Shown here one piece after another: positions 19,843-35,232 of a stretch of 64,000 nucleotides of DNA; positions within the stretch are counted from its first letter, which is position 1, and every line of letters begins with the position of its first letter. Made by a program: the position numbers and the translations under genes. The DNA is from Planctomycetota bacterium (GTDB lineage: Bacteria; Planctomycetota; GCA-2746535): assembly GCA_002746535.1 (NCBI GenBank), contig NVWA01000016.1:1-64000 (forward strand), read 5' to 3'. The notes beneath the pieces were generated by a model. It saw nothing but the letters and a program-made list of their open reading frames with translations, searched no databases and was not told the DNA's origin.

Positions 19843-20592
19843 ATGTCTGACAAATATAAGGACATTAAAAATAGTTTTAAAAACCTTACAGACCGATTTA
19901 AAAGTGATGAAGCCAAAGAGTTATATCAAAAGGCTCAAGATAAGTCTGAAGCCATATTCAATGGTGCTAAAGAACGGTTAAAAAATGTTGGCGATAAAAT
20001 TAGCGAACTAAATCCTACTGAAATCAAAAGCATATTAAAGAATGTAATCAAAGGAAAAATCCAAATTCCCACAAGATCTATAAAAGAAAGACTAGAACAA
20101 GAAATTCAAACACGAAAAAAATCTATTGATAAAATCGAGATAAACTTTCATGAAGATTATATATCTTCTACCTTCGATACGGCAGGCTTAGTACCTATCA
20201 GCGGAACCATAAAAATAAGTATTCATAAAATTGTAATAAATCAATATCAACAAACCATTTCATTCAAAACAGAAGCCCCTTTAGAAATTGATAAAGATAG
20301 TATACCAGAAGAATTATTAAATAATTTATCTGCCATTATCGGTATGGCTATCTTAGAACCAGACCAATTGCTCAATTTTATTCCTCCAGCTTTTAAGCCT
20401 TTAACAAAAGAAGGCGAAATTTTCGAATTCGATTTATCTCAAATTCAAGAATGTAACAATTGGTTCAACAAAAAAATTATGGAAAAACGTTTAGTGGAAT
20501 ATATAGAAATTAAGAAAATTGAAATTTCAGAAGATTTTATTACCTTGACCCCTTCCTTCGCTAAAACCGATAATAATATTTATTTAGAGTAA
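19843..20592 (+). CDS. hypothetical protein
   Basis: 249-aa ORF, charged and helical at the N-terminus, no motif. Confidence 0.35.
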   Translation: MSDKYKDIKNSFKNLTDRFKSDEAKELYQKAQDKSEAIFNGAKERLKNVGDKISELNPTEIKSILKNVIKGKIQIPTRSIKERLEQEIQTRKKSIDKIEINFHEDYISSTFDTAGLVPISGTIKISIHKIVINQYQQTISFKTEAPLEIDKDSIPEELLNNLSAIIGMAILEPDQLLNFIPPAFKPLTKEGEIFEFDLSQIQECNNWFNKKIMEKRLVEYIEIKKIEISEDFITLTPSFAKTDNNIYLE

Positions 20593-20631
20593 CTACATTT
20601 CAGAGGCTCAACTTAATTAGGAGAGAAATTT

Positions 20632-21075
20632 ATGAACAAATTACAGACAATACTGATCATGTCTATTCTGATGATTTTTACTTCACCTATGATTAATGCT
20701 AGTTGGGTAGATATTAAAATAGAAAAAATAATTAAAGATAACCCCTTAATTATTATCGGGAAAATTGAGAAAATCAGCACTACCAAGGCATCAAAAGGAG
20801 AAATTGATATTGCCTATATTAAAATATCGGAATTATTAAAAAATAAACTTAAAAATAAAAAAATAAAAATTGGAGATAAGATTCCTCTTTCAATGCCTGG
20901 GAAAAAGAAAAAACTTTCATTTGGTACTGATATTCGCTATAAAAAAGATCAAGAAGGCATATGGATACTTGAATTCAAAAATAATGTTTATTGGGCAACA
21001 TATCCGAAAGATTTTCAACCGTTGAAAGAGAAGAAAAAAATAATTAAAATAATCAAATCACAAAAAACAAAATAA
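20632..21075 (+). CDS. hypothetical secreted Lys-rich protein
   Basis: Signal peptide MNKLQTILIMSILMIFTSPMINA. Confidence 0.35.
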   Translation: MNKLQTILIMSILMIFTSPMINASWVDIKIEKIIKDNPLIIIGKIEKISTTKASKGEIDIAYIKISELLKNKLKNKKIKIGDKIPLSMPGKKKKLSFGTDIRYKKDQEGIWILEFKNNVYWATYPKDFQPLKEKKKIIKIIKSQKTK

Positions 21076-21083
21076 ACAGTATC

Positions 21084-21908
21084 TTACAATTTTAATTTTG
21101 ATTTTTGCCAATTTCGTGGGCTTGCACCATAACGTTTTTTAAAAATACGAGAGAAGTAAGCCTCATCTTCGTAACCAATTTCATTTGAAATTTGAGAAAT
21201 TGTTTTTTGAGTGTCGGTTAATAAATAGGTCGCGACCTTCAAACGATGTGCTAATAAATAATTGATTGGAGAATCTCCAAAATACTCTTTAAATTTTACA
21301 CAAAAATTGGGTACAGAATAATGGGCCATTTCAGCTAATTCTTCCAACTGAATGCTCTGATCATAATTTTGAACTAAATATTCTTTGATAGATTGAAACT
21401 TTGACGGGGTTTGAATTTTTTTAGCTCCCATGTGACTGTTGGATATCTTTCTCAAAAATATCTCAATTAAACTGCGAACGATACTTGGATCCACTAATGA
21501 TTCATTTACCACTTCATGATATAAATTTAATAAATATTGATCAAAAAATATTGGATTTTCAAAACGAATAGGAACTTTTGTGGGTAGTTTTAAATGCTTC
21601 AATGTTTTTTTAATCAAGCTTCCATCACAATGCAACCAAGAGTGTGACCACACAATTTCTTCATTTCCATAAAAATGGGAATCGCTGGGCTCCCAAATAA
21701 CTAATGAATTACTTGGGATTAATAATTCTTCATCTAACGTCGATAGCTTAACCTCGTTCCAAAACATCATAAACAAATAATCACCGGTACCTTGCGTACG
21801 CCGAACAAAACTTTTGTTCATAGATTCTGAAATGCCTAATGCACGAATACACAATTCATTTGCAACGGGAGTTGGATAATTTGGGAATAGTTTTAATTCT
21901 TTATTCAT
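21084..21908 (-). CDS. AraC family transcriptional regulator
   Basis: C-terminal AraC-type HTH (ISQISNEIGYEDEAYFSRIFKKRYGASPRNW) and an N-terminal cupin-like sensor. Confidence 0.8.
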   Translation of the reverse strand: MNKELKLFPNYPTPVANELCIRALGISESMNKSFVRRTQGTGDYLFMMFWNEVKLSTLDEELLIPSNSLVIWEPSDSHFYGNEEIVWSHSWLHCDGSLIKKTLKHLKLPTKVPIRFENPIFFDQYLLNLYHEVVNESLVDPSIVRSLIEIFLRKISNSHMGAKKIQTPSKFQSIKEYLVQNYDQSIQLEELAEMAHYSVPNFCVKFKEYFGDSPINYLLAHRLKVATYLLTDTQKTISQISNEIGYEDEAYFSRIFKKRYGASPRNWQKSKLKL

Positions 21909-21960
21909 CGATATTTTTTTTCAATCAATTAATAAACTTAAAGAAACGTATTAAATAAAT

Positions 21961-24900
21961 TTACGCCTCTTCATCATCGTCATCATCTAGATCAAAGTCT
22001 TTGTTTTTATTTTTTGCCTTAATGTTCGCTAGCAATTTATCAAAATCTTGATTAGCATCTTTTATGGTCGCCTTCAGTTCTTTTAGCTCTTTTGTATGAC
22101 CTTTAGACGAATCATATAATGATTTCATCCATGTTTCCATCAAATTAACTTGATGGTTCAAGACATTGACAAAAGCCAATGGCATTCTGTTTTTAATTTC
22201 AATACTTGGCGGCTCAGTAACAGGCAAACTCCCAAAGCCCTCTACAATCCCTTCCTTAAAACCATTTACCATATTTTCCATTTGGCTTACCATACGCAGT
22301 GTAATTAATTCCGTTTGGTTTTCTTTTGGCTTTTTATTTTGGCTACTCAGCAAGGCATCTTTAATTGATTCAATTCCTTCGGACAAATTGCTGATCTGCA
22401 AAATAACCTGGCCGACCTTATCACCTTCTTCAATACCTTGCATCGAAAGTTTTTTCTTAAAAGTTCTTTTTATCGCTGACCAACGATCGCTTTCCTCTTC
22501 AGTTATCGTACCTTTAATCTCATTAAATTTTAAAAGATTTGACTCTGCACCTGTTGTTAATGTTTGCGCTTCATTCTCATAATGATTGTCAATAAGTGCT
22601 TCTAATTCTTCGTCATTCATAACGGATACAATTTTTTCTACGATCTTATTCATATTTCGATAAGAACCTTGCAACTTGAATGGTGGCTCGGTTCTATAAT
22701 CATCTTGCATGGCCGCTGAACTGACATAATTCTTATTCACATTTAAGATTACGTCTCTTACCCGCAGAATCTTTTTCATGGTATTCACATACTCATCAAT
22801 TTCTTCGACTGAATAATTACCCACAAATTCAACTCCATCACGACTTCCTTTTTCAGCAATGTCGACAATACCATAAACATCTTTTTGGCTTGAACTCGCT
22901 AATTTATTTAAAACGGGGTTAGAGGTTAAACTGTTTTCTACATAAGATAATTTAAATGCCTCTTCACTATCCCCAGCAACATCACCTAAATTGTAAGTAT
23001 CAGCACGGTTGGCTAACATATCTGGAATCTGAAATTTATCGCCACTTTCGGTGTATGGGTTACCCGCCATGACAACCGCAACTTTTCGTCCACGAAGATC
23101 ATAGGTTTTACTTTTGCCCTTATAAACACCTTCCATTTTTCTTTGACCATCACACAAGGAAATAAACTTCTGCAAAAACTCTGGATTACAATGCTGAATA
23201 TCATCTAAATAGATCATAATATTATCACCCATTTCGAGAGATAAATTTAACTTTTCAACTTCTTGTTTTGCACTAGCATTTGGAGCATCTGCAGGATCCA
23301 AAGATGTGACTTCGTGACCAAGAGCTGGGCCATTTATCTTCATGAATGTCAAGCCCAACCGATTGGCAATATATTCCATTAAGGTTGTTTTACCATAACC
23401 TGGTGGAGAAACTAATAATAACATACCCATTAGGTCTGTACGCTTTTGGTCTCCAGCCGCACCCATTTGTTTGGCAAAGTTATCACCAATCATTGGTAAG
23501 TAAACTTCATCAATTAATTTATTTCGAACAAACGATGATAATACACGCGGCTTAAACTCATCTAGTCGCATCAACTCTTTTTCGTCTTCAATGAGCTGAG
23601 CTTTTAAGCTACGGTATTCATTAAATGCTTTTACAGTGACATCTTCAAACTCACGCATTTTCAAAGTAAATAAATTATAATTAAGGAAATATTTTCCATC
23701 TTCGATAACTTTGTGACTGCCAGTGATGCCCTCGACTTCAGTAGAAATGGAGACATCAACTAATTTATATTTCGCACTATCACCTTGTGTAATTGCTACG
23801 GCAACTTCATCAATATAACGCTCGTCAATAGATTCATTTTCAGAATCGATAAAAGCTTCTAACCAATCTCGACTCAACTGGCATTGACTTCCCGCCTGTG
23901 GGCTCAACTCTTCAATTGCTTTTGTAAACTTATCATTGTAATGACGTGATTTTAAATATTTCAAAAAAGCACCCTGAAGGTCTTTTGCTTCTTTCGACAA
24001 AACAAAGACTTCACCGTTTTGCAATTGCTCAAATAAATATTCCGCCGCTTGATCAACATATTGTTCGCCAAAATAATAAACAAGATCCGTACATTCTTTT
24101 AGCAATTCAGCAATATGAAAAATATATTTCTCTTGCTTCTTATGGCTACTAAATAATTCATTCATCAAGCCAAAACCACGCAATTGCGACAAAACCATTT
24201 CTTTCGTTTCATCATCAATAAAATGAGACCAAAAGAAACTCGCCATGGCACGTGATTGAGTGTCAAATTTTAACAATCCAATACCAATGTGTAGCCTTAA
24301 CAATTCCTTAAGTATCTTTGCGCCATCAAGATCATGCAACCCTTTGGTATATGATTCTTCATAACGATCACTCATAAAATGTTGCAACCTATCTAAAAAC
24401 TCATCCTCAGGTAAATTTAATAAGCCCGTAATTTCAGATTGATCTTGTGTTTTAAGTTCTTCCAAAAATTTAAATACGAGATACTCCCCTTTATATACTT
24501 CTGTATTTTCAGATACGATATCTTGCGACCAGACTTCTCTTGTTTTCAGGAAGGCTTCATCGGTCACCTCTTCAAAATAATTAGTACCGGCAAGATGGAA
24601 AAACATTTCATCATCTTTTTGCACGATACTTAAATCTAATTCTTGTGTATTTGTCGTAAAATTATGTTTACCCAAACGAATAATATTTTCGCCATCGACG
24701 AATAATTCTTTGCGGTCTTTTAATTGTCTGACGGTTTCCTCTTGCAATGATTTCAAACGGCTTTGCAAATCATCAGACTTGACCATGTCACCAAGATCAG
24801 AAAGCTTAGCGATAATATCGCGTGATTTCTCAATCATTAAGTCAGAAGCAAAATAGCCATTGATTTCATTGATTTCTGTGAACTGGCTAGCCCGGTGCTT

Positions 24901-27243
24901 GATACCATTTAGAATGCGATCAGCAGCTTTTAATAAAGAGGTGGCTTTCTTGTTACGAGCATCTTGCAGTGTGACTTTTTTAGTTTCAAAAGCATTTAAG
25001 ACTTCTTCTCTTTTATCCGTGAGAGTTATAATAAACTCGTCAAATTCTGAGAACTTGCCTTCTAACTCTTCGATCTGAACCATGATCTTTGTCATGTACT
25101 CGTCACATTTTTCCGGTGTATCAGAAACATCTAAATAATTTATGATACTATGGCTCATCAATTTTAATTGAGAGTTAAATTCAGCAATACCTTCGGAGCT
25201 TAAAAGTTCTTTCTTCTTATTTTTTATTTTAACTTTAGTTTGATTAACGGAACTAAAGATCGAAGAAATGCTATCTATTATTTGAGTTGTTTGGGTTGGA
25301 TCATCAATTTTTAAATTACTGACGATATCGATTAGCATTTCTAATTCATTAGAAGATTGTTTGATATTTGCTTCAAGCTCTTTGGCATCCATACCTTTTT
25401 TAACAGTTTCAATCTTCTCATTTATTTCAGTAATTTTATCTTTGTATTTATCAAGAGATTTTGGCTCCAATAAAAACTGCACACATTGCTGAGAAAGCTT
25501 CTCGGTGTTTTCAGTAATTATTTTTTCAGCTTCTTCCAATGCTTGAATATTAATATAACGAACACTTTTCGAAGAGATGACTTCACCGCGCAATGCACGT
25601 AGAGCGGCTAAATTAGTAACAAATGGATCAATATCATTTTTAGGTGCTGATTGAATATCTTTTGTGAGCTGATCGACTTTTTTGCGAATTTCTTTTTCTG
25701 TAGAAGTTGCATTCAGCCTGAGCTTTAAGACTTTTTCAAATTCATCAACAGCACTGCCGGCAGCTTCCTTGATGGACTCAATTGGTTTATTAAGGAATAA
25801 GGTATCTTCTTTGTCTAACCAAAAATAAGAATCAAGAATATCTCCAGCCTTTTTGACAATATCAACATAGACGCCTTCATAGGCTTCGCCCTTATTCAAT
25901 AGAGTTAAGATTTCATACATCTCAGCCATACCACCGACAAGATCTTTATTGCCAATTTTGAATAAAAACGAATCCGTTGAAGTTGTTTGTACAAAATCAT
26001 CACCAGTGTAAGGTGTTTGCCAAATTTGAACCGTGTGATGCTTCTGAGGGTTTTCTTCTGTTTTAAAGAACAGCATTTCACCATTAGAGAAAATTGAATA
26101 ACCATTACATATAATCGGCGTTTCAACTTGCTGCTCAATCAAGTTATAGGACATTAAAATGTATATGCCCAATTCCCGATTATAAAATGCATATAAATAA
26201 TCTTCACCATTGGGTGATGCGACACGCTTTTCAAAGATCAAACCTGTTGTTTCATTTTCAAATGATTTGTGATCGCCATTTTGAAGAAAATAACCATTCG
26301 AAAAAATAATACCGTGATTATCGGGCAAGAGAATACAAGAGTCCTCTACACTATCGACGCGCACGACCTTCTTGGCTTTTTCGCTATAAGCAAAATATCT
26401 AAATTTATCTTCTTGGTAGGGTCTAATCTTTAAAAGAATAATATTTTCAATGATCGTATAAAAATATTCGGCATCATCTAAGGTTTGATCAACCTGCTCA
26501 ACGGCTTCAGAATAAATCCCTTCCCCCGACTCTGTGTTGTCTTCAATTTTAATAGTAAGGTCACCACCAACAGTTTCAACAAATAAACGATCTTCAATGG
26601 ATACATGCGGGTGGTCACCTGATCGATGCAAATCACGATGGGTTCTTATCCATTCAAATTCATGTTGTACAGGATATTTAAATTCAGCCTCAGAACGATT
26701 GCCCTCATAGTTTAAATTCTCGCCATCTATTTGCCATTTAAAGACCTTAACATCTCCAACGCTTTTACCAATTCTGAATACGGCATAAAGATAGGGCCCA
26801 AGAATAGAAAATTTTACAAATGTCGTGTTTTTATAGTATTTATATAATTCTTTAAAATCTTCTCTAAAAGGCTCATGACTAAGGAAATCATGCTCCGTCT
26901 TGTGAAACAAATGATCATCAAAATTGTATACACTTAAGACGTCTTCTGGATGAAGTTCTGACTTCAACCCTACATGAACATTATAACCAAAAATAAAAAA
27001 ACCACCGATTGAAATCATATCTCGAGGGATACAGTTATTATCAGTCGTAATTCTTTCAGTCTTTAATAGCTCAGTCGCAATTGACCCAAAGACTTCTTTA
27101 CGCTTGCTATTAAGTTCTTGAAGTTTGCCTCTTAGGGTTTCACCATGATTGTCAAGCCTACTTTTAATAATCTCATAGGTTCCACTATCAAGCTGAATGC
27201 CATCGGCCTTTTCATTTTGATCAATTATTTCTTCAGTCGCCAT
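21961..27243 (-). CDS. 1760-aa protein with an AAA_5 (MoxR/dynein-like) ATPase module
   Basis: Walker A LLLVSPPGYGKTTLMEY (encoded around 23385..23420), Walker B IMIYLDDIQHCNPEFLQKF and ...VAVVMAGNP sensor region. An N-terminal region of roughly 1250 aa carries coiled-coil stretches. The C-terminal tail is poly-acidic, DLDDDDDEEA. Confidence 0.6.
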   Translation of the reverse strand: MATEEIIDQNEKADGIQLDSGTYEIIKSRLDNHGETLRGKLQELNSKRKEVFGSIATELLKTERITTDNNCIPRDMISIGGFFIFGYNVHVGLKSELHPEDVLSVYNFDDHLFHKTEHDFLSHEPFREDFKELYKYYKNTTFVKFSILGPYLYAVFRIGKSVGDVKVFKWQIDGENLNYEGNRSEAEFKYPVQHEFEWIRTHRDLHRSGDHPHVSIEDRLFVETVGGDLTIKIEDNTESGEGIYSEAVEQVDQTLDDAEYFYTIIENIILLKIRPYQEDKFRYFAYSEKAKKVVRVDSVEDSCILLPDNHGIIFSNGYFLQNGDHKSFENETTGLIFEKRVASPNGEDYLYAFYNRELGIYILMSYNLIEQQVETPIICNGYSIFSNGEMLFFKTEENPQKHHTVQIWQTPYTGDDFVQTTSTDSFLFKIGNKDLVGGMAEMYEILTLLNKGEAYEGVYVDIVKKAGDILDSYFWLDKEDTLFLNKPIESIKEAAGSAVDEFEKVLKLRLNATSTEKEIRKKVDQLTKDIQSAPKNDIDPFVTNLAALRALRGEVISSKSVRYINIQALEEAEKIITENTEKLSQQCVQFLLEPKSLDKYKDKITEINEKIETVKKGMDAKELEANIKQSSNELEMLIDIVSNLKIDDPTQTTQIIDSISSIFSSVNQTKVKIKNKKKELLSSEGIAEFNSQLKLMSHSIINYLDVSDTPEKCDEYMTKIMVQIEELEGKFSEFDEFIITLTDKREEVLNAFETKKVTLQDARNKKATSLLKAADRILNGIKHRASQFTEINEINGYFASDLMIEKSRDIIAKLSDLGDMVKSDDLQSRLKSLQEETVRQLKDRKELFVDGENIIRLGKHNFTTNTQELDLSIVQKDDEMFFHLAGTNYFEEVTDEAFLKTREVWSQDIVSENTEVYKGEYLVFKFLEELKTQDQSEITGLLNLPEDEFLDRLQHFMSDRYEESYTKGLHDLDGAKILKELLRLHIGIGLLKFDTQSRAMASFFWSHFIDDETKEMVLSQLRGFGLMNELFSSHKKQEKYIFHIAELLKECTDLVYYFGEQYVDQAAEYLFEQLQNGEVFVLSKEAKDLQGAFLKYLKSRHYNDKFTKAIEELSPQAGSQCQLSRDWLEAFIDSENESIDERYIDEVAVAITQGDSAKYKLVDVSISTEVEGITGSHKVIEDGKYFLNYNLFTLKMREFEDVTVKAFNEYRSLKAQLIEDEKELMRLDEFKPRVLSSFVRNKLIDEVYLPMIGDNFAKQMGAAGDQKRTDLMGMLLLVSPPGYGKTTLMEYIANRLGLTFMKINGPALGHEVTSLDPADAPNASAKQEVEKLNLSLEMGDNIMIYLDDIQHCNPEFLQKFISLCDGQRKMEGVYKGKSKTYDLRGRKVAVVMAGNPYTESGDKFQIPDMLANRADTYNLGDVAGDSEEAFKLSYVENSLTSNPVLNKLASSSQKDVYGIVDIAEKGSRDGVEFVGNYSVEEIDEYVNTMKKILRVRDVILNVNKNYVSSAAMQDDYRTEPPFKLQGSYRNMNKIVEKIVSVMNDEELEALIDNHYENEAQTLTTGAESNLLKFNEIKGTITEEESDRWSAIKRTFKKKLSMQGIEEGDKVGQVILQISNLSEGIESIKDALLSSQNKKPKENQTELITLRMVSQMENMVNGFKEGIVEGFGSLPVTEPPSIEIKNRMPLAFVNVLNHQVNLMETWMKSLYDSSKGHTKELKELKATIKDANQDFDKLLANIKAKNKNKDFDLDDDDDEEA

Positions 27244-27351
27244 AATTTACCTAACGGTGATAATTCAATTAAAATTTTTCTCAAATTAAACTTCTTTTCA
27301 GAATTAAAAGAGACATAGTCAAAGATTATGCCTCACTTGTAATGAATCTGA

Positions 27352-29454
27352 TTAAAGATTTAATAAGCTGGCGGCTTTATCCGCCAGACCGTTATTTTGT
27401 ACAAAATCTAAAATGCCTTCTAACGAACTCGTCGTACCTTTATCTTTTGACTTGGTCATAAGCTTCCCAATCAAGGCTGATAGACTGATGTTTTTAAGAT
27501 CTTCAGAACTCATACCAAACTGATCAACAAATTTACTTAATTGGTCTTTAAAGTATGCTGGATCACCGTTAAAGAATGTTTGTTTCACATCTGTTAAGAC
27601 TTTACTGTTATCAACCGTTCTATCGATTGACTTACCCGTTGTGATAGAGTTAATCAACTTGTCAAAGAACATTGTATCACCACCGACAATATCAATTTTA
27701 GCTGTTCGTAAACCTTCTTTTAGAATTTCAGCTTGTTCTATTGCAATATCTTTCTGAATGTGCAATTCAGTGATCTCAACTTCTTTATCTTTCTCTAACT
27801 GCAATTTGAATTGCTCATGAAATTGACTTTCATCATCAAAAAGCTTCATCGCTTCAGCTTTGTGCTCAATGCCAGAAGCTTCAGCATTATACTTCTCAGA
27901 CATTACATGAGCTTCTACAAGACCTTGTTTCTCTAATGCAATTGCTTTAGCTTCAATAACTTTCGCTTCCGAAAGACCTTCTTGAGCTTCGGCTTTAAAT
28001 TTTTCTTCCATGACAAGAGCTTCCATCACACCTTGTTTTTCCATGGCACTGGCTTTAGCTTCAATGACTTGTGCTTGAGCAAGTCCAACGGCAGCTTCTT
28101 CAGCGGTTAAGGCTTCGGCCAAAACTTTCATTTCATCAGCTTTTTTCATAGCGGCTTTTTCACTAGCATCAGCGTCAATCAATGTTTTTTCAGCATTAAA
28201 GACCGAAGACTTTTTCTCAGCTTCCGCTGCTGTGATATCTTTTACTAGTTCCTGTTCAGCCATTCTCTCTGCATCTGTAATGGCAACTTTTTTCTCTCGA
28301 TCAGCAGCAGCAAATTCGCGAGTATCTTTAATTTTTTCTTCTTCTTCAACAACAAGCTTTTCAACCATGACTCGTTCTTTAATGACATCCTGGATAAGCT
28401 TCTTCTCAATTTCAATGGCTTTATCTTTTTCAATATCCGCCAGAGCAACGATTCTTTCTCTTTCAGTTATTTCCAACTGACGGTCTTTTTCGACTCGTTC
28501 CGTTTCAACCGCATGAGTTCTTTCTTTATTCTTTAGCGCCACAATAACTTGCCGTTGTTTATTTTCTTCGGCTATTTGCAGCTCTTCTTCCGTAGAAATC
28601 CGAGCTCGCTCAGACTTTAGTTTTTCTTCTTCGTCAACTTTAGCAATTTCAGCCTCTTCTCTAGATTTCACATTAGCTACTTCACGTTTCTGCTTTTCTT
28701 CCGTTTCGGCTAATTGCCTTTCCATTTCAAGGATCGCTTCCCGAGCATTAACATTTTGTTGGGTAATTTTTTTCTCTTTTTCATTCTCAATATCGTTCGA
28801 AAGAATTGATTGGGCTGCGGTCAAACGAGTTATCTTTTTAATGCCTTCTGCATCTAAAATATTATCTGGACTTAAATGCTCTAAATCCGTTTGCTCTAGA
28901 TAATCAATGGCACAGTCATCTAAAATATAACCGTTTAATTCTTTGCCAATAACTTTGAGAATTTCATCTCTAAATTTTTCTCTGGAATTATACAAATCGA
29001 TAAAATCAAATCGTTTACCTACTGATTTTAAGGCTTCTGAGAATTTGGCATCAAACAACTCCTCTAAAGCTTCTTGCTGAGAAGCTCTTTTACAACCAAT
29101 TGATTGAGCAACTTTGATCACAGCCTCTTCATTTTTGCTGACTTGAACAAAAAAGGCAACTTTAATATCTGCTCTCAAATTGTCTTTACAGATTAGCCCA
29201 TCTTTCCCCAATCGAACAATCTCTATTCGCTTTAAAGAGATATCCATAATTTCGTGTCTATGCACTACAGGATAGACCATAATTCCGTTAAATGAAACTT
29301 TTGTTTTACCCATTCCTGTTCTAACCAAGGCTGTCCCCTGAACAATCTTCATAAAACATTTAACAATCACCAGCCCAATTACAATTACTGAAACTACGAA
29401 AAATACAATAACTGCAATGGTCATTCCGCTTAAAAAGTCCATCTTAATCTCCAA
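27352..29454 (-). CDS. flotillin (SPFH/Band 7 domain, YqiK/FloT-like)
   Basis: N-terminal TM helix, SPFH domain and a long EA-rich coiled coil with internal repeats, matching flotillin architecture. Confidence 0.8.
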   Translation of the reverse strand: MEIKMDFLSGMTIAVIVFFVVSVIVIGLVIVKCFMKIVQGTALVRTGMGKTKVSFNGIMVYPVVHRHEIMDISLKRIEIVRLGKDGLICKDNLRADIKVAFFVQVSKNEEAVIKVAQSIGCKRASQQEALEELFDAKFSEALKSVGKRFDFIDLYNSREKFRDEILKVIGKELNGYILDDCAIDYLEQTDLEHLSPDNILDAEGIKKITRLTAAQSILSNDIENEKEKKITQQNVNAREAILEMERQLAETEEKQKREVANVKSREEAEIAKVDEEEKLKSERARISTEEELQIAEENKQRQVIVALKNKERTHAVETERVEKDRQLEITERERIVALADIEKDKAIEIEKKLIQDVIKERVMVEKLVVEEEEKIKDTREFAAADREKKVAITDAERMAEQELVKDITAAEAEKKSSVFNAEKTLIDADASEKAAMKKADEMKVLAEALTAEEAAVGLAQAQVIEAKASAMEKQGVMEALVMEEKFKAEAQEGLSEAKVIEAKAIALEKQGLVEAHVMSEKYNAEASGIEHKAEAMKLFDDESQFHEQFKLQLEKDKEVEITELHIQKDIAIEQAEILKEGLRTAKIDIVGGDTMFFDKLINSITTGKSIDRTVDNSKVLTDVKQTFFNGDPAYFKDQLSKFVDQFGMSSEDLKNISLSALIGKLMTKSKDKGTTSSLEGILDFVQNNGLADKAASLLNL

Positions 29455-30094
29455 TTCTGTTAATATCTGATTTTGTTACTATAAACAAATCATCTTTATT
29501 ATCTTTAGTGCTATATACAATTACTTCATCACCTTTATTAAACTCATCACCTTCATCACAAACAACATTCAATTTTACTACGCCACTTTCTCCTGTTAAT
29601 AATTCAATTTGGCCATATTCCTCTGTGATTTTAAGAGAAGTTACGACACCAATTTGGCCAATAACTTCTTCGTGTTCAGTACCGCTATTTAATGCTTTAA
29701 ATAATTTCTTGAATGGTATTGAGCAGTACTTCGTAAACATCGCAGATACAAGAAAGTTTGGTACAAGAATTATTACGGAAATGAAAATTGAATTACTAGC
29801 ATTTAAATAATGATTTGCTGTCAGTCCAAAGAACCATAAAAATATGGTAAATATATTAAACAGCACCATGATTGGGATTTCACCAATATTAAAAAACAAT
29901 AGGATTTGTTTAAAGAGGCCACCATCAATATCCGCATTAAGTTCAATTTCGACATCTGTTTCGGTATCAACATCAAATGCTTCCACATCTATGAAGCCAA
30001 GGATTATTGTTGTCCAATACATCATCGTAAAACCCAATAAAATAGTATAGGGTAAATTTACGATTAAGAATAAAGCCTTGAAAATCTCATCCAT
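29444..30094 (-). CDS. NfeD/YqiJ-like membrane protein
   Basis: N-terminal TM helices plus a C-terminal soluble beta-rich domain. It overlaps the flotillin start by 11 nt, as in the E. coli yqiJ-yqiK pair. Confidence 0.55.
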   Translation of the reverse strand: MDEIFKALFLIVNLPYTILLGFTMMYWTTIILGFIDVEAFDVDTETDVEIELNADIDGGLFKQILLFFNIGEIPIMVLFNIFTIFLWFFGLTANHYLNASNSIFISVIILVPNFLVSAMFTKYCSIPFKKLFKALNSGTEHEEVIGQIGVVTSLKITEEYGQIELLTGESGVVKLNVVCDEGDEFNKGDEVIVYSTKDNKDDLFIVTKSDINRIGD

Positions 30095-30390
30095 ATATAG
30101 ACCTTTCGGGAGGTAAAGCTGAAATTATAGCCTAAAGCTTAGACTCGCAAGATCAAACTTAACTTACCAAAAATTAAAAGCATTAAATAAAATGATTTCT
30201 CATTTATTGAACGGACATCATTTTACATACACAACCAAACTAAGCTTTTACAATTAAAAATAAACTTTATAAAGGCTCACTTATCAAATAATCTATCGAA
30301 TTTAGATTAAATTTAAGAATAAATATTATCGAAAAAAGTTACTTTTAATTCTATAATTCATTTATGGCTTAATTCAATAAAGGGATCTTT

Positions 30391-30690
30391 ATGAGCGTAA
30401 TATACATAGATGTTGACAATACTTTAATAACCACCTATCTAAAAAAAAGAACTCCGATCAATCATATCTCTGATAACATCAGTGACCTTTCAAAAAAAGG
30501 ACATCTCCTTTACTGTTGGTCCACCGGTGGAGCAATCTATGCAAAAGACATTGCTATAGAACTTGGTATCGAAAAATATTTCGAAGCATTTCTTCCGAAA
30601 CCAGAAGTTATGATTGATGATCAACCAATCAATACATGGAAACTTCTCAAACAAATCAAACCTGATCAGTTTTCATTGGATGATTTTTAA
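30391..30690 (+). CDS. small HAD-like protein
   Basis: IYIDVDNTL (HAD motif I, DxDxT). Only 99 aa. Confidence 0.35.
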   Translation: MSVIYIDVDNTLITTYLKKRTPINHISDNISDLSKKGHLLYCWSTGGAIYAKDIAIELGIEKYFEAFLPKPEVMIDDQPINTWKLLKQIKPDQFSLDDF

Positions 30691-31130
30691 TGACCACAAC
30701 CATCAAGCTTATTACCTTCAACTCAAATGATTATCACAAAGCTTTTAAATTTCGAAATGATCTATTAAGAAAACCACTTGGTCTTGATTTATCTGATGAT
30801 GATCTTAGCAATGAAATAAATAACTACCATTTTGGAACCTTTGAAAATGAAGAAATCATTGCTTGCTTAGTTGGTACCGAAAAAGATAAAACAACTATGA
30901 AAATAAGACAAATGGCTGTTTCTGAAAAATATCAATCGAGAGGTTTAGGCAAGCAAATGATGATCTACGCTGAAACCTTTTTTATCAATAAAGGCTTCAA
31001 ACAATTTGAATTAAATGCGAGAGAACACGCTATTCCATTTTATGAAAAATTAGGATACCATTCAGTGGGCGATATTTTTATGGAAGTCACAATAAAACAT
31101 GTCAAAATGTTTAAAGTTTACGACAACTGA
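30690..31130 (+). CDS. GNAT family N-acetyltransferase
   Basis: QSRGLGKQMM acetyl-CoA binding motif. Confidence 0.7.
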   Translation: MTTTIKLITFNSNDYHKAFKFRNDLLRKPLGLDLSDDDLSNEINNYHFGTFENEEIIACLVGTEKDKTTMKIRQMAVSEKYQSRGLGKQMMIYAETFFINKGFKQFELNAREHAIPFYEKLGYHSVGDIFMEVTIKHVKMFKVYDN

Positions 31131-31138
31131 CTTTAATT

Positions 31139-32017
31139 TTAATCAATTACATATTCACTAATGTTTCGATCTTCCGGATAAAATGCTTCTTTTACTTCAT
31201 TAACTTTTTCAAATTGGATTAAAGCGTTATCTTCAGTTAAGGGTACAGATCTACCATTTTTCCAAGCCCACTCACCGCGGGTACAATTTTCAGCTTTTAC
31301 ATATCCATTAATATAAAATCGACGATCTAGATAATTACTAGAATTAAAACCACCTCCATGAACTACAAACGCATTCCAAATGACAACATCGCCAGGGTCC
31401 ATTATCAGTGGTTTTATTCTTGGATCATTTTTATAACTTACGGCAGAATACAAAGACTGATCATTTGCGTCGGCAGGGAAATCTTTATGGCTACCTGGCA
31501 CAACAAACATAGCCCCATTTTCTTCACGATGGTGATCTATAGCGATTCCAGTTTGGACCCAAGAACTAAATAAATCTTTAAAGGCTTCGACTGGTTGACG
31601 AGACCTAACATCTCGATGCAATGGCCATGAGATTTTTGAACCAGGCATTTTCCAGTGCAATTGATTTATTATTTGCTTTAGGTTGTTTCCAATAAACGGT
31701 TCTACAATCTCAAGTAAACGAGTATCAAGACGAAATTTTGCCATGACGGAATCATGATAGGATGGCCATTGCATTCCTCTGACGACTGAATCCTCAATCC
31801 AAACAATTGTATTTTGCTTTCTCCAAGTTCGTCCAATTAAATTACCAAATTCTTTCCATCGATCAAATGCCATAGCCAATTGATTGATTTCTTTGCTTGA
31901 AAAGACATTTTTAATTAAAGTATAACCATCGTCATTAAATTGCGCTATATGCTTCTTAGTGATTAAAGATGATATTTCAACATCAATTACTTGTGACATA
32001 ACTTGGCTCCTTGGCAT
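31139..32017 (-). CDS. phytanoyl-CoA dioxygenase (PhyH) family Fe(II)/2OG oxygenase
   Basis: WPLHRDV (HxD) and a distal VHGGGFN His. Confidence 0.55.
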   Translation of the reverse strand: MPRSQVMSQVIDVEISSLITKKHIAQFNDDGYTLIKNVFSSKEINQLAMAFDRWKEFGNLIGRTWRKQNTIVWIEDSVVRGMQWPSYHDSVMAKFRLDTRLLEIVEPFIGNNLKQIINQLHWKMPGSKISWPLHRDVRSRQPVEAFKDLFSSWVQTGIAIDHHREENGAMFVVPGSHKDFPADANDQSLYSAVSYKNDPRIKPLIMDPGDVVIWNAFVVHGGGFNSSNYLDRRFYINGYVKAENCTRGEWAWKNGRSVPLTEDNALIQFEKVNEVKEAFYPEDRNISEYVID

Positions 32018-32753
32018 AAAACTTTTCGATAATTTTTACATTTTTTTGCAATTGATTAATTACACTTTTGTATTTTGATTTAGGAAAGTCTTTCTCACAG
32101 TCTGATAAGCCAAGGGCAGCCACAACAATACCCTCATCATTTTTTACTGGCAAAGCCATTGCAACAACATCTTGTCCGTTCTCCAAAAAGCTAATTGATA
32201 TTTCTTTTCGTTTAATTTCATTTAAATCTTTTTTTAAACTACTAATGGTCATATGAGTATTTGGTCCTCTTTTCTCAAAGATCATGTCTTTAAGTAATTC
32301 TTCTCGCGGTGATCTTTTCATAAAAGCAAAGAATAACTTTCCACATGCCGATGAATAAGAATTTAAGACGGAACCCAAAGAATCTAAGGTGTCGCGAACA
32401 ATACCGTCGTGTGTAACGTAAACCACGGTAATACCTTCATGACCAAAAGGCAAAGCCAAAGTTAATGGGCGCTTGATAGATTGAACAGCTTTTTGCATAA
32501 TCGGTAGAGCATACTGTCTAATTGGAATTTGAGACAACAAAGCATGACCTAATCGCAAAGCGCCAATTCCAATTTGATAACGCCTTTGGCTAGCTTGTTC
32601 AACATATTGGTGTTCTATTAATGTTTGTAAAAGTCTGTGAACATGACTTTTTGGTAAGTTTATTTGATTGGCAATTTCACTTAATTGATATGGCTTAGCG
32701 GAACTTGCTAAAATTAATAATAAATCTAATCCATTGGAAAGTGTGTTATTCAA
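31983..32753 (-). CDS. IclR family transcriptional regulator
   Basis: N-terminal wHTH (LSEIANQINLPKSHVHRLLQTL) and a C-terminal IclR-type effector domain. Confidence 0.7.
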   Translation of the reverse strand: MNNTLSNGLDLLLILASSAKPYQLSEIANQINLPKSHVHRLLQTLIEHQYVEQASQRRYQIGIGALRLGHALLSQIPIRQYALPIMQKAVQSIKRPLTLALPFGHEGITVVYVTHDGIVRDTLDSLGSVLNSYSSACGKLFFAFMKRSPREELLKDMIFEKRGPNTHMTISSLKKDLNEIKRKEISISFLENGQDVVAMALPVKNDEGIVVAALGLSDCEKDFPKSKYKSVINQLQKNVKIIEKFYAKEPSYVTSN

Positions 32754-33021: not shown

Positions 33022-35232
33022 TTAAGATTGCTTGTAGGTTATGATTGGCTTCGAGGTTCTAATAGACTTAAGATTAATTACTGTTTTAAATTTTCGAGCA
33101 TTAACCTCTATAATAATTTCATTTTTTAAATGAGATCCAGTTATTTTTACGGGAGCTTTACTTTTGATCCCCTTGAAAGGAAATAATACATAAGCACATG
33201 TAAACGGCAACTCACCATTATAGGAAAATTGAACAGCCGGTCTTTTTACTCTACCACCATACTGACATGTAAAGCTCGTGAGAAGTTTCATGCCCAACGC
33301 ATAATCTTGATTATTTTCTTCACCAATTGCTGTTACTTGAATATTAGCATTGCTGTCAGTATCATGATTGGCTGCCACATAGTTCTTGAAATTAAAACTA
33401 GTGGATTGCCTCGCAAAAAAAAGATCTTCTCCGGCATATCGGTTTAAGTTTTTAATTTTATCTGAATGTTTCGACCAAACCGTCAAGTTTTTTAGATCAA
33501 CACCCAATTCTGATTCGGGTGCATTGAAATGAAATCTATTGTCAACGATTTCATAGGGCTCTGTTTTGCCTGGCCATTTCTTAGAACGTTTAACCGTATC
33601 AAGAATTATCCAGAAAGGTTCATCCATCTCATTATTTTTTACTTTACCAATTAATGCAGCGGTTCTTATGATTGAATGAGATTCATGTAAGTTATTGATC
33701 GCAGTCACATAATTAATTGATGGGCTGTGAATTACTTGGGTAGTTTTCGTCCAACTCGAGCCTTCTAATCGCGGGCCTAAAGGTTTGTACCTACCAAGCG
33801 TTACCATACTATGGCTTTCTCCAATGGTGTCATGCGCTTGGGAAATAATATTGTATCCAGAAAAACCCGGATCTGTAATCAAAGGTCGTCCATATCCCCA
33901 TACATCTAAAGAACCAACATCATTATGTGCATGATTAATATTTAAAGCATATGTTAAATTTAGTGCTACAGAATCCAATCCTTTACCGGCACCTAAAATC
34001 TGATATCCACTTTTATTAAAAGCATAACACCCTTGTATCTTTTGGTTGAATTTTGGCTTTTTCATTTTGTGCCAGTGCTGAATTCCCTTTTTTCCCATCT
34101 CCCAAAATAATATTTCATGGGCTTCACTTCTATCAAAGAACCCTGTTCTATTTAAAAAATCAGGTCTATTAAAAAACACGGCCGCCAAATGCAGCATTTC
34201 ATTATGGGCGGTATGCCCTTCATGATGAGAATAAACACCGGTATCAGCCAACAAAGGGGCAATGCCATTATTTCTGCAAATCATACTTGAAAATTCAAAC
34301 GATTTCTCAACGTTTTTCCAAAGTTTGGATGGGATTTTATCACCAGTGCCTTTCCAGTAATATAAATTTTTTATGAGAAGGTTATGAACAACTCGTTGGT
34401 AACCAACCCCTTCTTTAAAGTAGCCTTCTTCATTAACATTGTATTTACTCGTGAAATCATCTGCTATTCTTGATCTTGCCCATTTTAACCATTTGGAAGA
34501 TTGCTTAAAATCTTTAAATATTCCAGCAACCAAATGTGTTGTTGAAATTAAATGCAATGGAATATTAAACATTGCATCCTTACCAGCAGCGAAATAATTA
34601 AATCTAGCTAATTGAAAGAAAACTTTAGCTAAAAATAATTTTTCCTTACTATTGAGATGATCTTTGAAAAAAGGGAATGCCATCATTAGTTCTTCTCCAA
34701 TGTGACCCGTATCATGACCAGGCACACGTCCATAGGCAAATGAGTGCCAACTAAAAGCAGGGGCATGTCGACCTTCTTGCAGTTCAGGTAAGGACTCAAT
34801 AGAATTGTGCACGAGCTTTATGAACCCTTCAAGGTATTTCTTTTTCCCGGTAATATGGAAAAGTCGAATCACATTATAGGCCGCACTACATCTTTTCTTT
34901 CTAGTATTAGCAACTCCCTTATAGACAAGATTGAATTTTTCCTGATTAACATCTTTAGGTTTCGTTGGAATGTCTTTTAAAAAAGTACTGTCTGCTATCG
35001 ATACCATTTCTTTGATCTGCTTTGGAAAGTTTTTATTTAAATAATCACTTATCCAGGGTATATCATCTGACAATAAAGGATGTGAAACTGAAGTACTAAA
35101 TAACACTTCGGCTACTTCTTCAGCCCCTTCTTGGTATTTTTTTTGCTTATACAAACTACTTGCATTGTTATAATTTGGATTTGATAAATCTACTTCTTCA
35201 ATAAATTCTTTATCTGAAAAATTAAACTTCAC
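33022..35232 (-). CDS. heparinase II/III-like protein (second paralogue)
   Basis: NINHAHNDVGSLDVWGYGRP motif, plus an N-terminal alpha-toroid-like region. Confidence 0.65.
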   Translation of the reverse strand: MKFNFSDKEFIEEVDLSNPNYNNASSLYKQKKYQEGAEEVAEVLFSTSVSHPLLSDDIPWISDYLNKNFPKQIKEMVSIADSTFLKDIPTKPKDVNQEKFNLVYKGVANTRKKRCSAAYNVIRLFHITGKKKYLEGFIKLVHNSIESLPELQEGRHAPAFSWHSFAYGRVPGHDTGHIGEELMMAFPFFKDHLNSKEKLFLAKVFFQLARFNYFAAGKDAMFNIPLHLISTTHLVAGIFKDFKQSSKWLKWARSRIADDFTSKYNVNEEGYFKEGVGYQRVVHNLLIKNLYYWKGTGDKIPSKLWKNVEKSFEFSSMICRNNGIAPLLADTGVYSHHEGHTAHNEMLHLAAVFFNRPDFLNRTGFFDRSEAHEILFWEMGKKGIQHWHKMKKPKFNQKIQGCYAFNKSGYQILGAGKGLDSVALNLTYALNINHAHNDVGSLDVWGYGRPLITDPGFSGYNIISQAHDTIGESHSMVTLGRYKPLGPRLEGSSWTKTTQVIHSPSINYVTAINNLHESHSIIRTAALIGKVKNNEMDEPFWIILDTVKRSKKWPGKTEPYEIVDNRFHFNAPESELGVDLKNLTVWSKHSDKIKNLNRYAGEDLFFARQSTSFNFKNYVAANHDTDSNANIQVTAIGEENNQDYALGMKLLTSFTCQYGGRVKRPAVQFSYNGELPFTCAYVLFPFKGIKSKAPVKITGSHLKNEIIIEVNARKFKTVINLKSIRTSKPIITYKQS

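Follow-up and report, generated by a model that had tools for sequence, protein, structure and literature searches.

The DNA studied here, referred to as the window, is a stretch of 64,000 nucleotides from a Planctomycetota bacterium (positions 1 to 64,000 of contig NVWA01000016.1, assembly GCA_002746535.1). Its minus strand carries, in the order of reading, the genes for a YqiJ/NfeD-like membrane protein, a YqiK-type flotillin and a very large AAA+ ATPase, which is the subject of this analysis (coordinates in Table 1). The preliminary description of the locus had placed a 1760-aa protein at 21961-27243, and a single open reading frame (ORF) of that size was confirmed there, on the minus strand. 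A deposited 'AAA family ATPase', from a Planctomycetota bacterium known as a metagenome-assembled genome (MAG), is 100% identical to the 1760-aa protein; its closest other relatives share only 50-56% identity with it.

The two upstream genes are homologous to yqiJ and yqiK of Escherichia coli, and lie in the same order as in E. coli yqiJ-yqiK and Bacillus subtilis yuaF-floT. The flotillin shares 30% identity with E. coli YqiK over 446 aa (BLASTP, E = 4e-44). It consists of an N-terminal transmembrane (TM) segment, an SPFH domain (residues 37-177), a long helical region rich in Glu, Ala and Lys, and a conserved C-terminal region. It is about 150 residues longer than YqiK, to which its conserved C-terminal region does not align. 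The mechanically delimited flotillin ORF (27352-29454) opens at a TTG codon at 29454, and the deposited 696-aa protein starts at the ATG at 29442. The YqiJ-like protein matches E. coli YqiJ over its full length (BLASTP, E = 2e-10), and a single nucleotide separates its gene's stop codon from the flotillin ATG, a spacing which suggests translational coupling of the two genes. Searches of the PDB gave no sequence relatives for either the flotillin or the YqiJ-like protein.

The linkage of the three genes was examined in 82 related loci, on contigs from one genome per species. Where the contig held enough sequence, a flotillin gene was found upstream of the ATPase gene and in the same orientation (63 of 66 loci). 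By tblastn, 49 of 62 loci carry a YqiJ-like gene; clustering placed one in 56 loci. The loci span at least seven phyla (Planctomycetota, Bacteroidota, Verrucomicrobiota, Desulfobacterota, Clostridia, Kiritimatiellota and Omnitrophota), and clustering of the flanking ORFs did not reveal any further gene broadly conserved around the ATPase. In the reverse test, the ATPase gene lay directly downstream of three of the four sampled flotillins of about 700 aa (from Acidobacteriota, Calditrichia and Bacteroidota). The ATPase is almost always the third gene of a conserved, near-obligate three-gene membrane-scaffold module. Because it is almost always encoded beside the flotillin gene pair, the ATPase most likely works on membrane scaffolds and not on DNA. 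It has no TM helix, as had been noted, its highest Kyte-Doolittle mean over 19 residues being 1.16. The further suggestion, that any membrane association of this soluble protein would come through its partners, is strongly supported by the conserved upstream YqiJ-like and flotillin genes.

The domain structure of the ATPase was studied with AlphaFold2 (AF2) models of residues 1-1000 (mean predicted local distance difference test score, pLDDT, 81.9) and 800-1760 (79.1), built from two alignments of 78 sequences. Conservation was counted over 40 homologues from several phyla, with about 50% overall identity. The protein contains one AAA+ module, as had been proposed for the region near residues 1270-1420. 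The Walker A motif LLLVSPPGYGKTT (residues 1275-1287, window 23383-23421), the Walker B motif IMIYLDDIQ (residues 1342-1350, window 23194-23220) and the sensor region AVVMAGNP (residues 1389-1396, window 23056-23079) were all found in the translation. Residues K1285, D1347, D1348, N1395 and R1413 are invariant in 40/40 homologues, and 109 of the 189 columns of the large AAA+ subdomain are invariant. The AAA+ signature set (GYGKTT in Walker A, LDD in Walker B, N1395 and R1413) is present, with Asp rather than Glu as the second acidic residue of Walker B. R1413 is a candidate arginine finger. Because the catalytic residues are invariant and the core is extremely conserved, the module almost certainly binds nucleotide.

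The clade of the module was assessed by profile and structure comparison. Pfam scores were 32.9 bits for AAA (PF00004), 27.0 bits for AAA_5 (cutoff 22) and 25.4 bits for RuvB_N, and by hand count an AAA_5 match is recorded for about a third of the best homologues (~42/120). Comparisons by hhalign, of limited use as they were made against single E. coli sequences, gave a probability of 94% for RuvB over only 43 columns, and an insignificant 8% for the MoxR protein RavA (E = 0.004, 81 columns). Foldseek matched the module to RuvB (top match) and to NorQ/CbbQ at E ~1e-5, and the highest target TM-scores (0.5-0.59) were those of NorQ and CbbQ. In structure the predicted module is closest to CbbQ/NorQ (MoxR) and dynein, with a weaker match to RuvB; the closeness to the MoxR/AAA_5 clade extends to the pre-sensor-1 beta-hairpin (residues 1369-1382), located between helix 3 and the sensor-1 strand. 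AAA_5 (MoxR/dynein-type) is the best available clade assignment. The AAA_5 call of the preliminary description stands in that sense, although two features that define MoxR proteins, a VWA partner and significant profile similarity to RavA, are absent. As to the helix-2 insert of the clade, DSSP of the predicted model gives, between beta2 and alpha2, a conserved 18-residue loop with a short helix and no hairpin.

Compared with MoxR proteins (CbbQ, NorQ, RavA; AAA_5/AAA_3), dynein and midasin, the ATPase differs in having a 1230-residue N-terminal extension. It further differs from MoxR proteins in its Walker B (DD, where MoxR proteins have DE), in lacking a VWA/MIDAS partner, and in that the generic Pfam AAA model outscores AAA_5. 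The likeness to RuvB comprises the Walker A region and the pre-sensor-1 hairpin. The ATPase lacks a RuvA partner (clustering of the flanking ORFs gave no ruvA-like neighbour) and the winged-helix domain III, and scores 25.5 bits against the NCBIfam RuvB equivalog models, over 46 residues only, vs a cutoff of 282. Searches against Pfam and NCBIfam gave no SMC_N, AAA_23 or SbcC match that would point to SMC, Rad50 or SbcC proteins, and the AAA+ module is contiguous, whereas the ABC-type ATPase head of those proteins is split by a long antiparallel coiled coil.

The preliminary description had called the first ~1250 residues rich in predicted coiled coil and free of recognisable catalytic motifs. 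The picture of a long coiled-coil region with no recognisable feature was not borne out. Pfam finds DUF3686 (PF12458) on residues 37-474 (E = 3.6e-180, 599.7 bits vs a cutoff of 25, profile positions 2-448 of 448) and DUF7902 on residues 596-679 (E = 1.4e-26). Residues 58-410 are predicted to form a beta-propeller, and residues 850-1230 to form globular and beta domains; long, partly heptad-like helices occur only in residues ~430-850. The heptad score used here is a crude measure of our own, set against shuffled sequences at a 99% threshold and distinct from COILS or Marcoil, which separates regions clearly and is not a calibrated coiled-coil probability. By this score 221 of the 422 residues of the helical arm lie above the threshold. 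Significant stretches are found at residues 28-57, 242-272 (within the propeller), 499-539, 588-684, 711-794 and 1555-1582 and in the C-terminal tail region, with none anywhere in residues 848-1465. From this distribution, coiled-coil-like sequence is essentially limited to residues ~430-850. The long helices of the arm in the AF2 model include residues 485-532, 649-706 and 735-786.

The propeller region has 27 DSSP strands in the AF2 model, consistent with roughly seven four-stranded blades, and 75 invariant columns. Foldseek searches of the PDB with the 1-1000 model matched the N-terminal domain to beta-propellers of a generic kind only (E ~1e-5), namely those of Elp1, KLHDC3, CyRPA, prolyl oligopeptidase, eIF3i and the clathrin terminal domain. 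Because all of these matches are generic, we regard the N-terminal domain as a propeller with no specific known relative. A relationship of this model to coat proteins was considered and rejected, as the matches to dynein heavy chain, nucleoporin, clathrin and intraflagellar transport (IFT) proteins reached TM-scores of only 0.06-0.16, and reflect generic propeller and long-helix resemblance. When the PDB was searched by sequence, both the protein alone and a profile of 40 sequences aligned only with p97 and RuvB, over ~40 residues around Walker A, and no solved structure of any family member or N-domain relative was found. The searches did not show the N-terminal region to belong to a well-characterised enzyme family and the AAA_5 call to be wrong.

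The N-terminal domains are all well conserved, and PF12458, PF00004 and PF25472 occur together in 120/120 of the best homologues. Among family representatives DUF3686 is almost always N-terminal, and full-length members have 1600-2036 aa. The tail (residues 1641-1760) is the least conserved part of the protein, with zero invariant columns, and homologues from Bacteroidota and Clostridia end near query residue 1631, lacking it altogether. The acidic DLDDDDDEEA, noted earlier as a poly-Asp tail, does form the final 10 residues (window 21964-21993). It is not a feature of the family, and a significance for the family is not supported: eight or more Asp or Glu among the last 10 residues occur in 3/120 homologues, the query included, and most have 0-3.

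Table 1. Features of the three-gene module in the window and predicted domains of the ATPase, with residue numbers of the 1760-aa protein.
Feature	Window position	Strand	Basis
YqiJ/YuaF (short NfeD)-like membrane protein, 216 aa	29444..30094	-	Pfam YqiJ_N, 26.3 bits vs cutoff 23
YqiK-type flotillin, 696 aa from ATG	27352..29442	-	Pfam Band_7; YqiK similarity
DUF3686-AAA+ ATPase gene	21961..27243	-	Single ORF, 1760 aa
N-terminal long helix, residues 20-52, partly heptad-like	27088..27186	-	AF2 DSSP; heptad score
Predicted beta-propeller, residues ~58-410, core of DUF3686	26014..27072	-	Pfam; AF2 pLDDT mostly 85-93; Foldseek; conservation
Elongated helical arm, residues ~426-847, containing DUF7902 (596-679 = 25207-25458)	24703..25968	-	Pfam; AF2; heptad score
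Small conserved beta domain, residues 854-892	24568..24684	-	DSSP of both AF2 models; conservation
Globular all-helical domain, residues 918-1153	23785..24492	-	AF2 pLDDT ~90; no heptad signal, no Pfam match
Beta element 1159-1188 and long linker helix 1189-1225 into the ATPase	23569..23769	-	AF2
AAA+ module, residues ~1230-1465: large alpha/beta subdomain and helical lid	22849..23556	-	AF2
Walker A SPPGYGKTT, residues 1279-1287, K1285 invariant	23383..23409	-	Sequence; 40-homologue alignment
Walker B IMIYLDD, residues 1342-1348	23200..23220	-	DD invariant 40/40, followed by invariant I/V-Q-H
Sensor-1 AVVMAGNP (N1395) to invariant IPDML-x-NRAD	23005..23079	-	Sequence; 40-homologue alignment
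Conserved helical C-terminal domain, residues ~1480-1640	22324..22806	-	AF2; 30 invariant columns
Variable low-confidence helical tail, residues 1641-1760, ending DLDDDDDEEA	21964..22323	-	AF2; alignments; clade-specific

PspA is an ESCRT-III-type membrane-repair protein. PspA/IM30 genes were found in 18 of the 82 loci, all from Bacteroidota: upstream and co-oriented in 17, and downstream on the opposite strand in one (L019). A CesT/YbjN-like chaperone gene accompanies PspA in 16 of these loci, and a divergent helix-turn-helix (HTH) regulator was found by ORF clustering in a subset of similar size (16 loci). For example, in locus L012 (1912-4115) the YqiJ-like gene directly follows those for a CesT_Tir_1/YbjN-like chaperone (130 aa) and PspA/IM30 (250 aa), and an HTH_3 regulator gene is divergently oriented. 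Such Bacteroidota loci are five-to-six-gene membrane-stress operons. A tblastn search of the 64-kb window gave no PspA or CesT. The well-studied Pseudomonas fluorescens SBW25 megaplasmid pQBR103 (locus L086, record 85112-97641) carries the module together with PspA, all on one strand. Its genes encode PspA, a rhomboid protease, DUF2491, DUF350 and DUF1190 proteins, a glutathionylspermidine synthase, a 217-aa hypothetical protein, an SPFH protein and a 'DNA repair ATPase'; on this plasmid the module is joined to a polyamine-type PspA operon.

The same type of operon has already been described computationally by Ravi et al. 2024 (mSystems, PMC11237479), including widespread abbreviated operons that lack PspA, with the proposal of a chaperone-like function in assembling sub-membrane complexes. 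The locus in the window is the 'abbreviated' form of that operon, without the CesT/Tir-PspA dyad, and shows no essential difference from it; the window copy is distinguished by its low identity to its nearest relatives, as given above, and by its clade-specific helical, poly-acidic tail. Domain boundaries, AAA+ clade and motif analysis are not given in PMC11237479, and are added here. Popp et al. 2022 (PMC9239133) found PspA with band-7/FloT-domain proteins and NfeD in Acidobacteriota, with no mention of the ATPase, and reconstructed Psp networks in Bacteroidota. According to its title, and as cited in PMC10936438, the study of Scholz et al. 2021 (PMC8581546) reports that in B. subtilis PspA is tied to the membrane by an SPFH protein. 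FloA-NfeD of Staphylococcus aureus needs no ATP to stabilise unfolded proteins (Ukleja et al. 2024, PMC11222466). Membrane-attached cages are typical of SPFH proteins: the SPFH-NfeD complex QmcA-YbbJ is a cage of 26 heterodimers that extends into the cytoplasm, and the AAA+ protease FtsH sits inside HflK/C (all as cited in PMC13086221). Literature searches for DUF3686/PF12458, or for 'DNA repair ATPase' with flotillin, found nothing.

As the most likely explanation, we propose that the ATPase is an ATP-driven remodeller at flotillin/PspA membrane-stress scaffolds, serving as the ATPase subunit of the three-gene scaffold module; we judge this proposal to be about as likely right as wrong. The AAA+ modules would form a ring, as in MoxR ATPases, and the propeller and helical arms would dock this ring onto the cytoplasmic flotillin/YqiJ assembly. 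Binding and hydrolysis of ATP would then remodel the scaffold under membrane stress, by assembling, opening or recycling it, and where PspA is present its polymers may possibly be remodelled too. Analogies are offered by RavA, whose arms grip LdcI, by FtsH inside the HflK/C cage, and by Vps4, which recycles ESCRT-III. The likeness to HflK/C-FtsH lies in the pairing of an SPFH scaffold with an AAA+ machine in membrane quality control (as cited in PMC13086221 and PMC13220708). FtsH is however an enzyme of the classical AAA clade with a membrane anchor and a protease domain, and HflK/C faces the periplasm; none of this is true of the system in the window.

A more far-reaching form of this proposal, which we put forward tentatively and with some doubt, makes the family the missing energy source of flotillin/PspA scaffolds. 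In this form, a ring-forming MoxR-like motor would clasp the flotillin-YqiJ cage with propeller-tipped arms, and ATP would serve to open, recycle or reposition the cage and the ESCRT-III-like PspA polymers. If true, the family would be a bacterial functional analogue of Vps4/NSF that belongs to a different AAA+ clade and has no VWA adaptor.

Several points weigh against a role in scaffold remodelling. The interaction with the scaffold, the oligomeric state and the ATPase activity are predicted only, every structural statement made here is drawn from predicted models, and the literature searched contains no experimental paper on any family member. The linkage is also not obligatory. In one Cloacimonetes locus (L087) the flotillin pair occurs without the ATPase: the flotillin is 59% identical to that of the window and has a YqiJ-like partner, with a DUF547 gene in the place of the ATPase. 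Since this pair has the DUF547 gene instead, the ATPase is dispensable even for the flotillin subfamily of the window. The three exceptions among the 66 loci (L017, L021 and L047) have no flotillin gene within 8 kb upstream; genes upstream in L021 encode TPR and DUF4258 proteins. E. coli yqiJK has no third gene of the ATPase kind, yqiK being followed by sibD/ibsD.

Further points against the proposal come from the AAA+ module itself. MoxR ATPases usually work by way of a VWA/MIDAS partner, and Pfam searches and clustering of the flanking ORFs gave no VWA/MIDAS domain in the ATPase or in any conserved neighbour. In the sequence, the loop after beta2 has a conserved NGPAxGH and not the aromatic motif found in the pore loops of threading AAA+ enzymes. 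The DD in Walker B could mean poor hydrolysis. Within the proposal, its invariance suggests to us slow, switch-like hydrolysis rather than fast processive threading, and because of the DD Walker B and the absent aromatic pore loop, the enzyme may remodel slowly, as a clamp or switch, instead of unfolding proteins by threading.

These features also bear on a different explanation, in which the ATPase is an ATP-dependent processor of clients. Here flotillin-NfeD would act as an ATP-independent holdase for unfolded membrane-associated proteins, and the ATPase, as its energy-consuming partner, would extract, unfold or refold the held clients, as ClpB does with small heat-shock proteins or FtsH with HflK/C, the scaffold itself not being remodelled. 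An aromatic-hydrophobic-Gly pore loop after beta2, whose place is taken by the conserved NGPAxGH, would be expected of such an enzyme. This and the DD Walker B, together with the single AAA+ ring, the lack of a protease partner in the neighbourhood, and a nearest structural class that is MoxR and not Hsp100, lead us to consider this explanation unlikely.

A further explanation makes the ATPase a counterpart of Vps4, with PspA/IM30 (ESCRT-III superfamily) polymers as its main target, and with flotillin only recruiting PspA and the ATPase to the membrane. This is supported by the clusters that PspA and the CesT-like chaperone share with the ATPase in Bacteroidota and by the PspA gene on pQBR103. 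It would also fit the links between SPFH proteins and PspA reported in PMC8581546 and PMC10936438, as far as the title of the former and its citation in the latter go, and the statement in PMC11237479 that the regulation of assembly by PspA homologues lacking an associated AAA ATPase is not understood. We consider this explanation less probable still, and quite unlikely.

An anti-phage or conflict system, in which a membrane-disrupting effector would be gated by an AAA+ sensor, appears very improbable. The ATPase is a large multi-domain NTPase, small variable genes, some immunity-protein-like (DMP19, DUF4258), lie in or beside the operon in some genomes, and the gene is occasionally found on megaplasmids, all of which might be expected of a defence system. 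However, PADLOC gave only a 14.4-bit TRIP13 match to the Walker A region of the ATPase, and none for its neighbours. The family has no relatives in 2.9 million viral contigs and is rare on plasmids (13/72,556 records), the genes around it in the window have ordinary metabolic and regulatory functions, and the very high conservation of sequence across phyla is unlike that of fast-evolving defence genes. Least credible of all is a RuvB-like or SMC/SbcC-like enzyme acting on DNA, as in the source names 'DNA repair ATPase' and 'ATPase involved in DNA repair': weak RuvB_N Pfam and sub-threshold NCBIfam matches, the hhalign probability for RuvB and its place as top Foldseek match would favour it, and yet the sole similarity to a DNA enzyme is the Walker A region of RuvB, so that the database name has no support.

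Bacterial flotillins and PspA have been studied as ATP-independent membrane organisers and repair factors, and the disassembly or regulation of their large assemblies still calls for an explanation. For this, a highly conserved and widespread ATPase of 1600-2000 residues that is tied genetically to the flotillin pair is an obvious candidate. The gene in the window belongs to a known but uncharacterised family, of which it is an ordinary though somewhat divergent member and whose operon context has already been described computationally. The present analysis adds domain boundaries and targets for mutation (K1285, D1347/D1348, N1395 and R1413), and the family offers an attractive candidate, which can be tested, for the missing ATPase of bacterial flotillin/PspA scaffolds. 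The first 600 pattern matches cover at least 568 species, and the family comprises 714 clusters at 50% identity. Members occur in the tractable hosts Proteus mirabilis, Vibrio campbellii, P. fluorescens SBW25 (pQBR103), Flavobacterium and Gimesia.

In some Bacteroidota loci (L016, 6621-7707; L067, 5841-7741), the flotillin and ATPase genes are separated by two to three small variable genes. They include genes for a DMP19-like protein, a DUF3997 protein and a DUF3592 membrane protein, and are not conserved across loci.

In the window, the ATPase gene is followed on the same strand, 52 nt downstream, by an AraC-family regulator gene (21084..21908). We weighed this gene as a possible fourth component of the module and rejected it, an AraC-like match being present in only 2/82 loci, at non-equivalent positions; the gene is probably unrelated to the module. 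A promoter and terminator scan of positions 20500-31000 gave nothing above shuffled sequences, and no operon boundaries. Upstream of the module, on the minus strand, positions 33022-35232 and 31139-32753 encode a heparinase II/III-like protein, a PhyH dioxygenase and an IclR regulator. These upstream genes are ordinary polysaccharide-utilisation and metabolic genes, with no signature of a mobile element or defence island, and the other neighbours in the window are likewise ordinary metabolic and regulatory genes. A GNAT acetyltransferase gene (30690-31130, plus strand) lies divergently just upstream of the YqiJ-like gene. YuaI of B. subtilis is likewise a GNAT acetyltransferase. Its gene is reported to be the third of the yuaF-floT operon (Hinderhofer et al. 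2009), and the presence of a GNAT gene near both NfeD-flotillin operons may be a coincidence.

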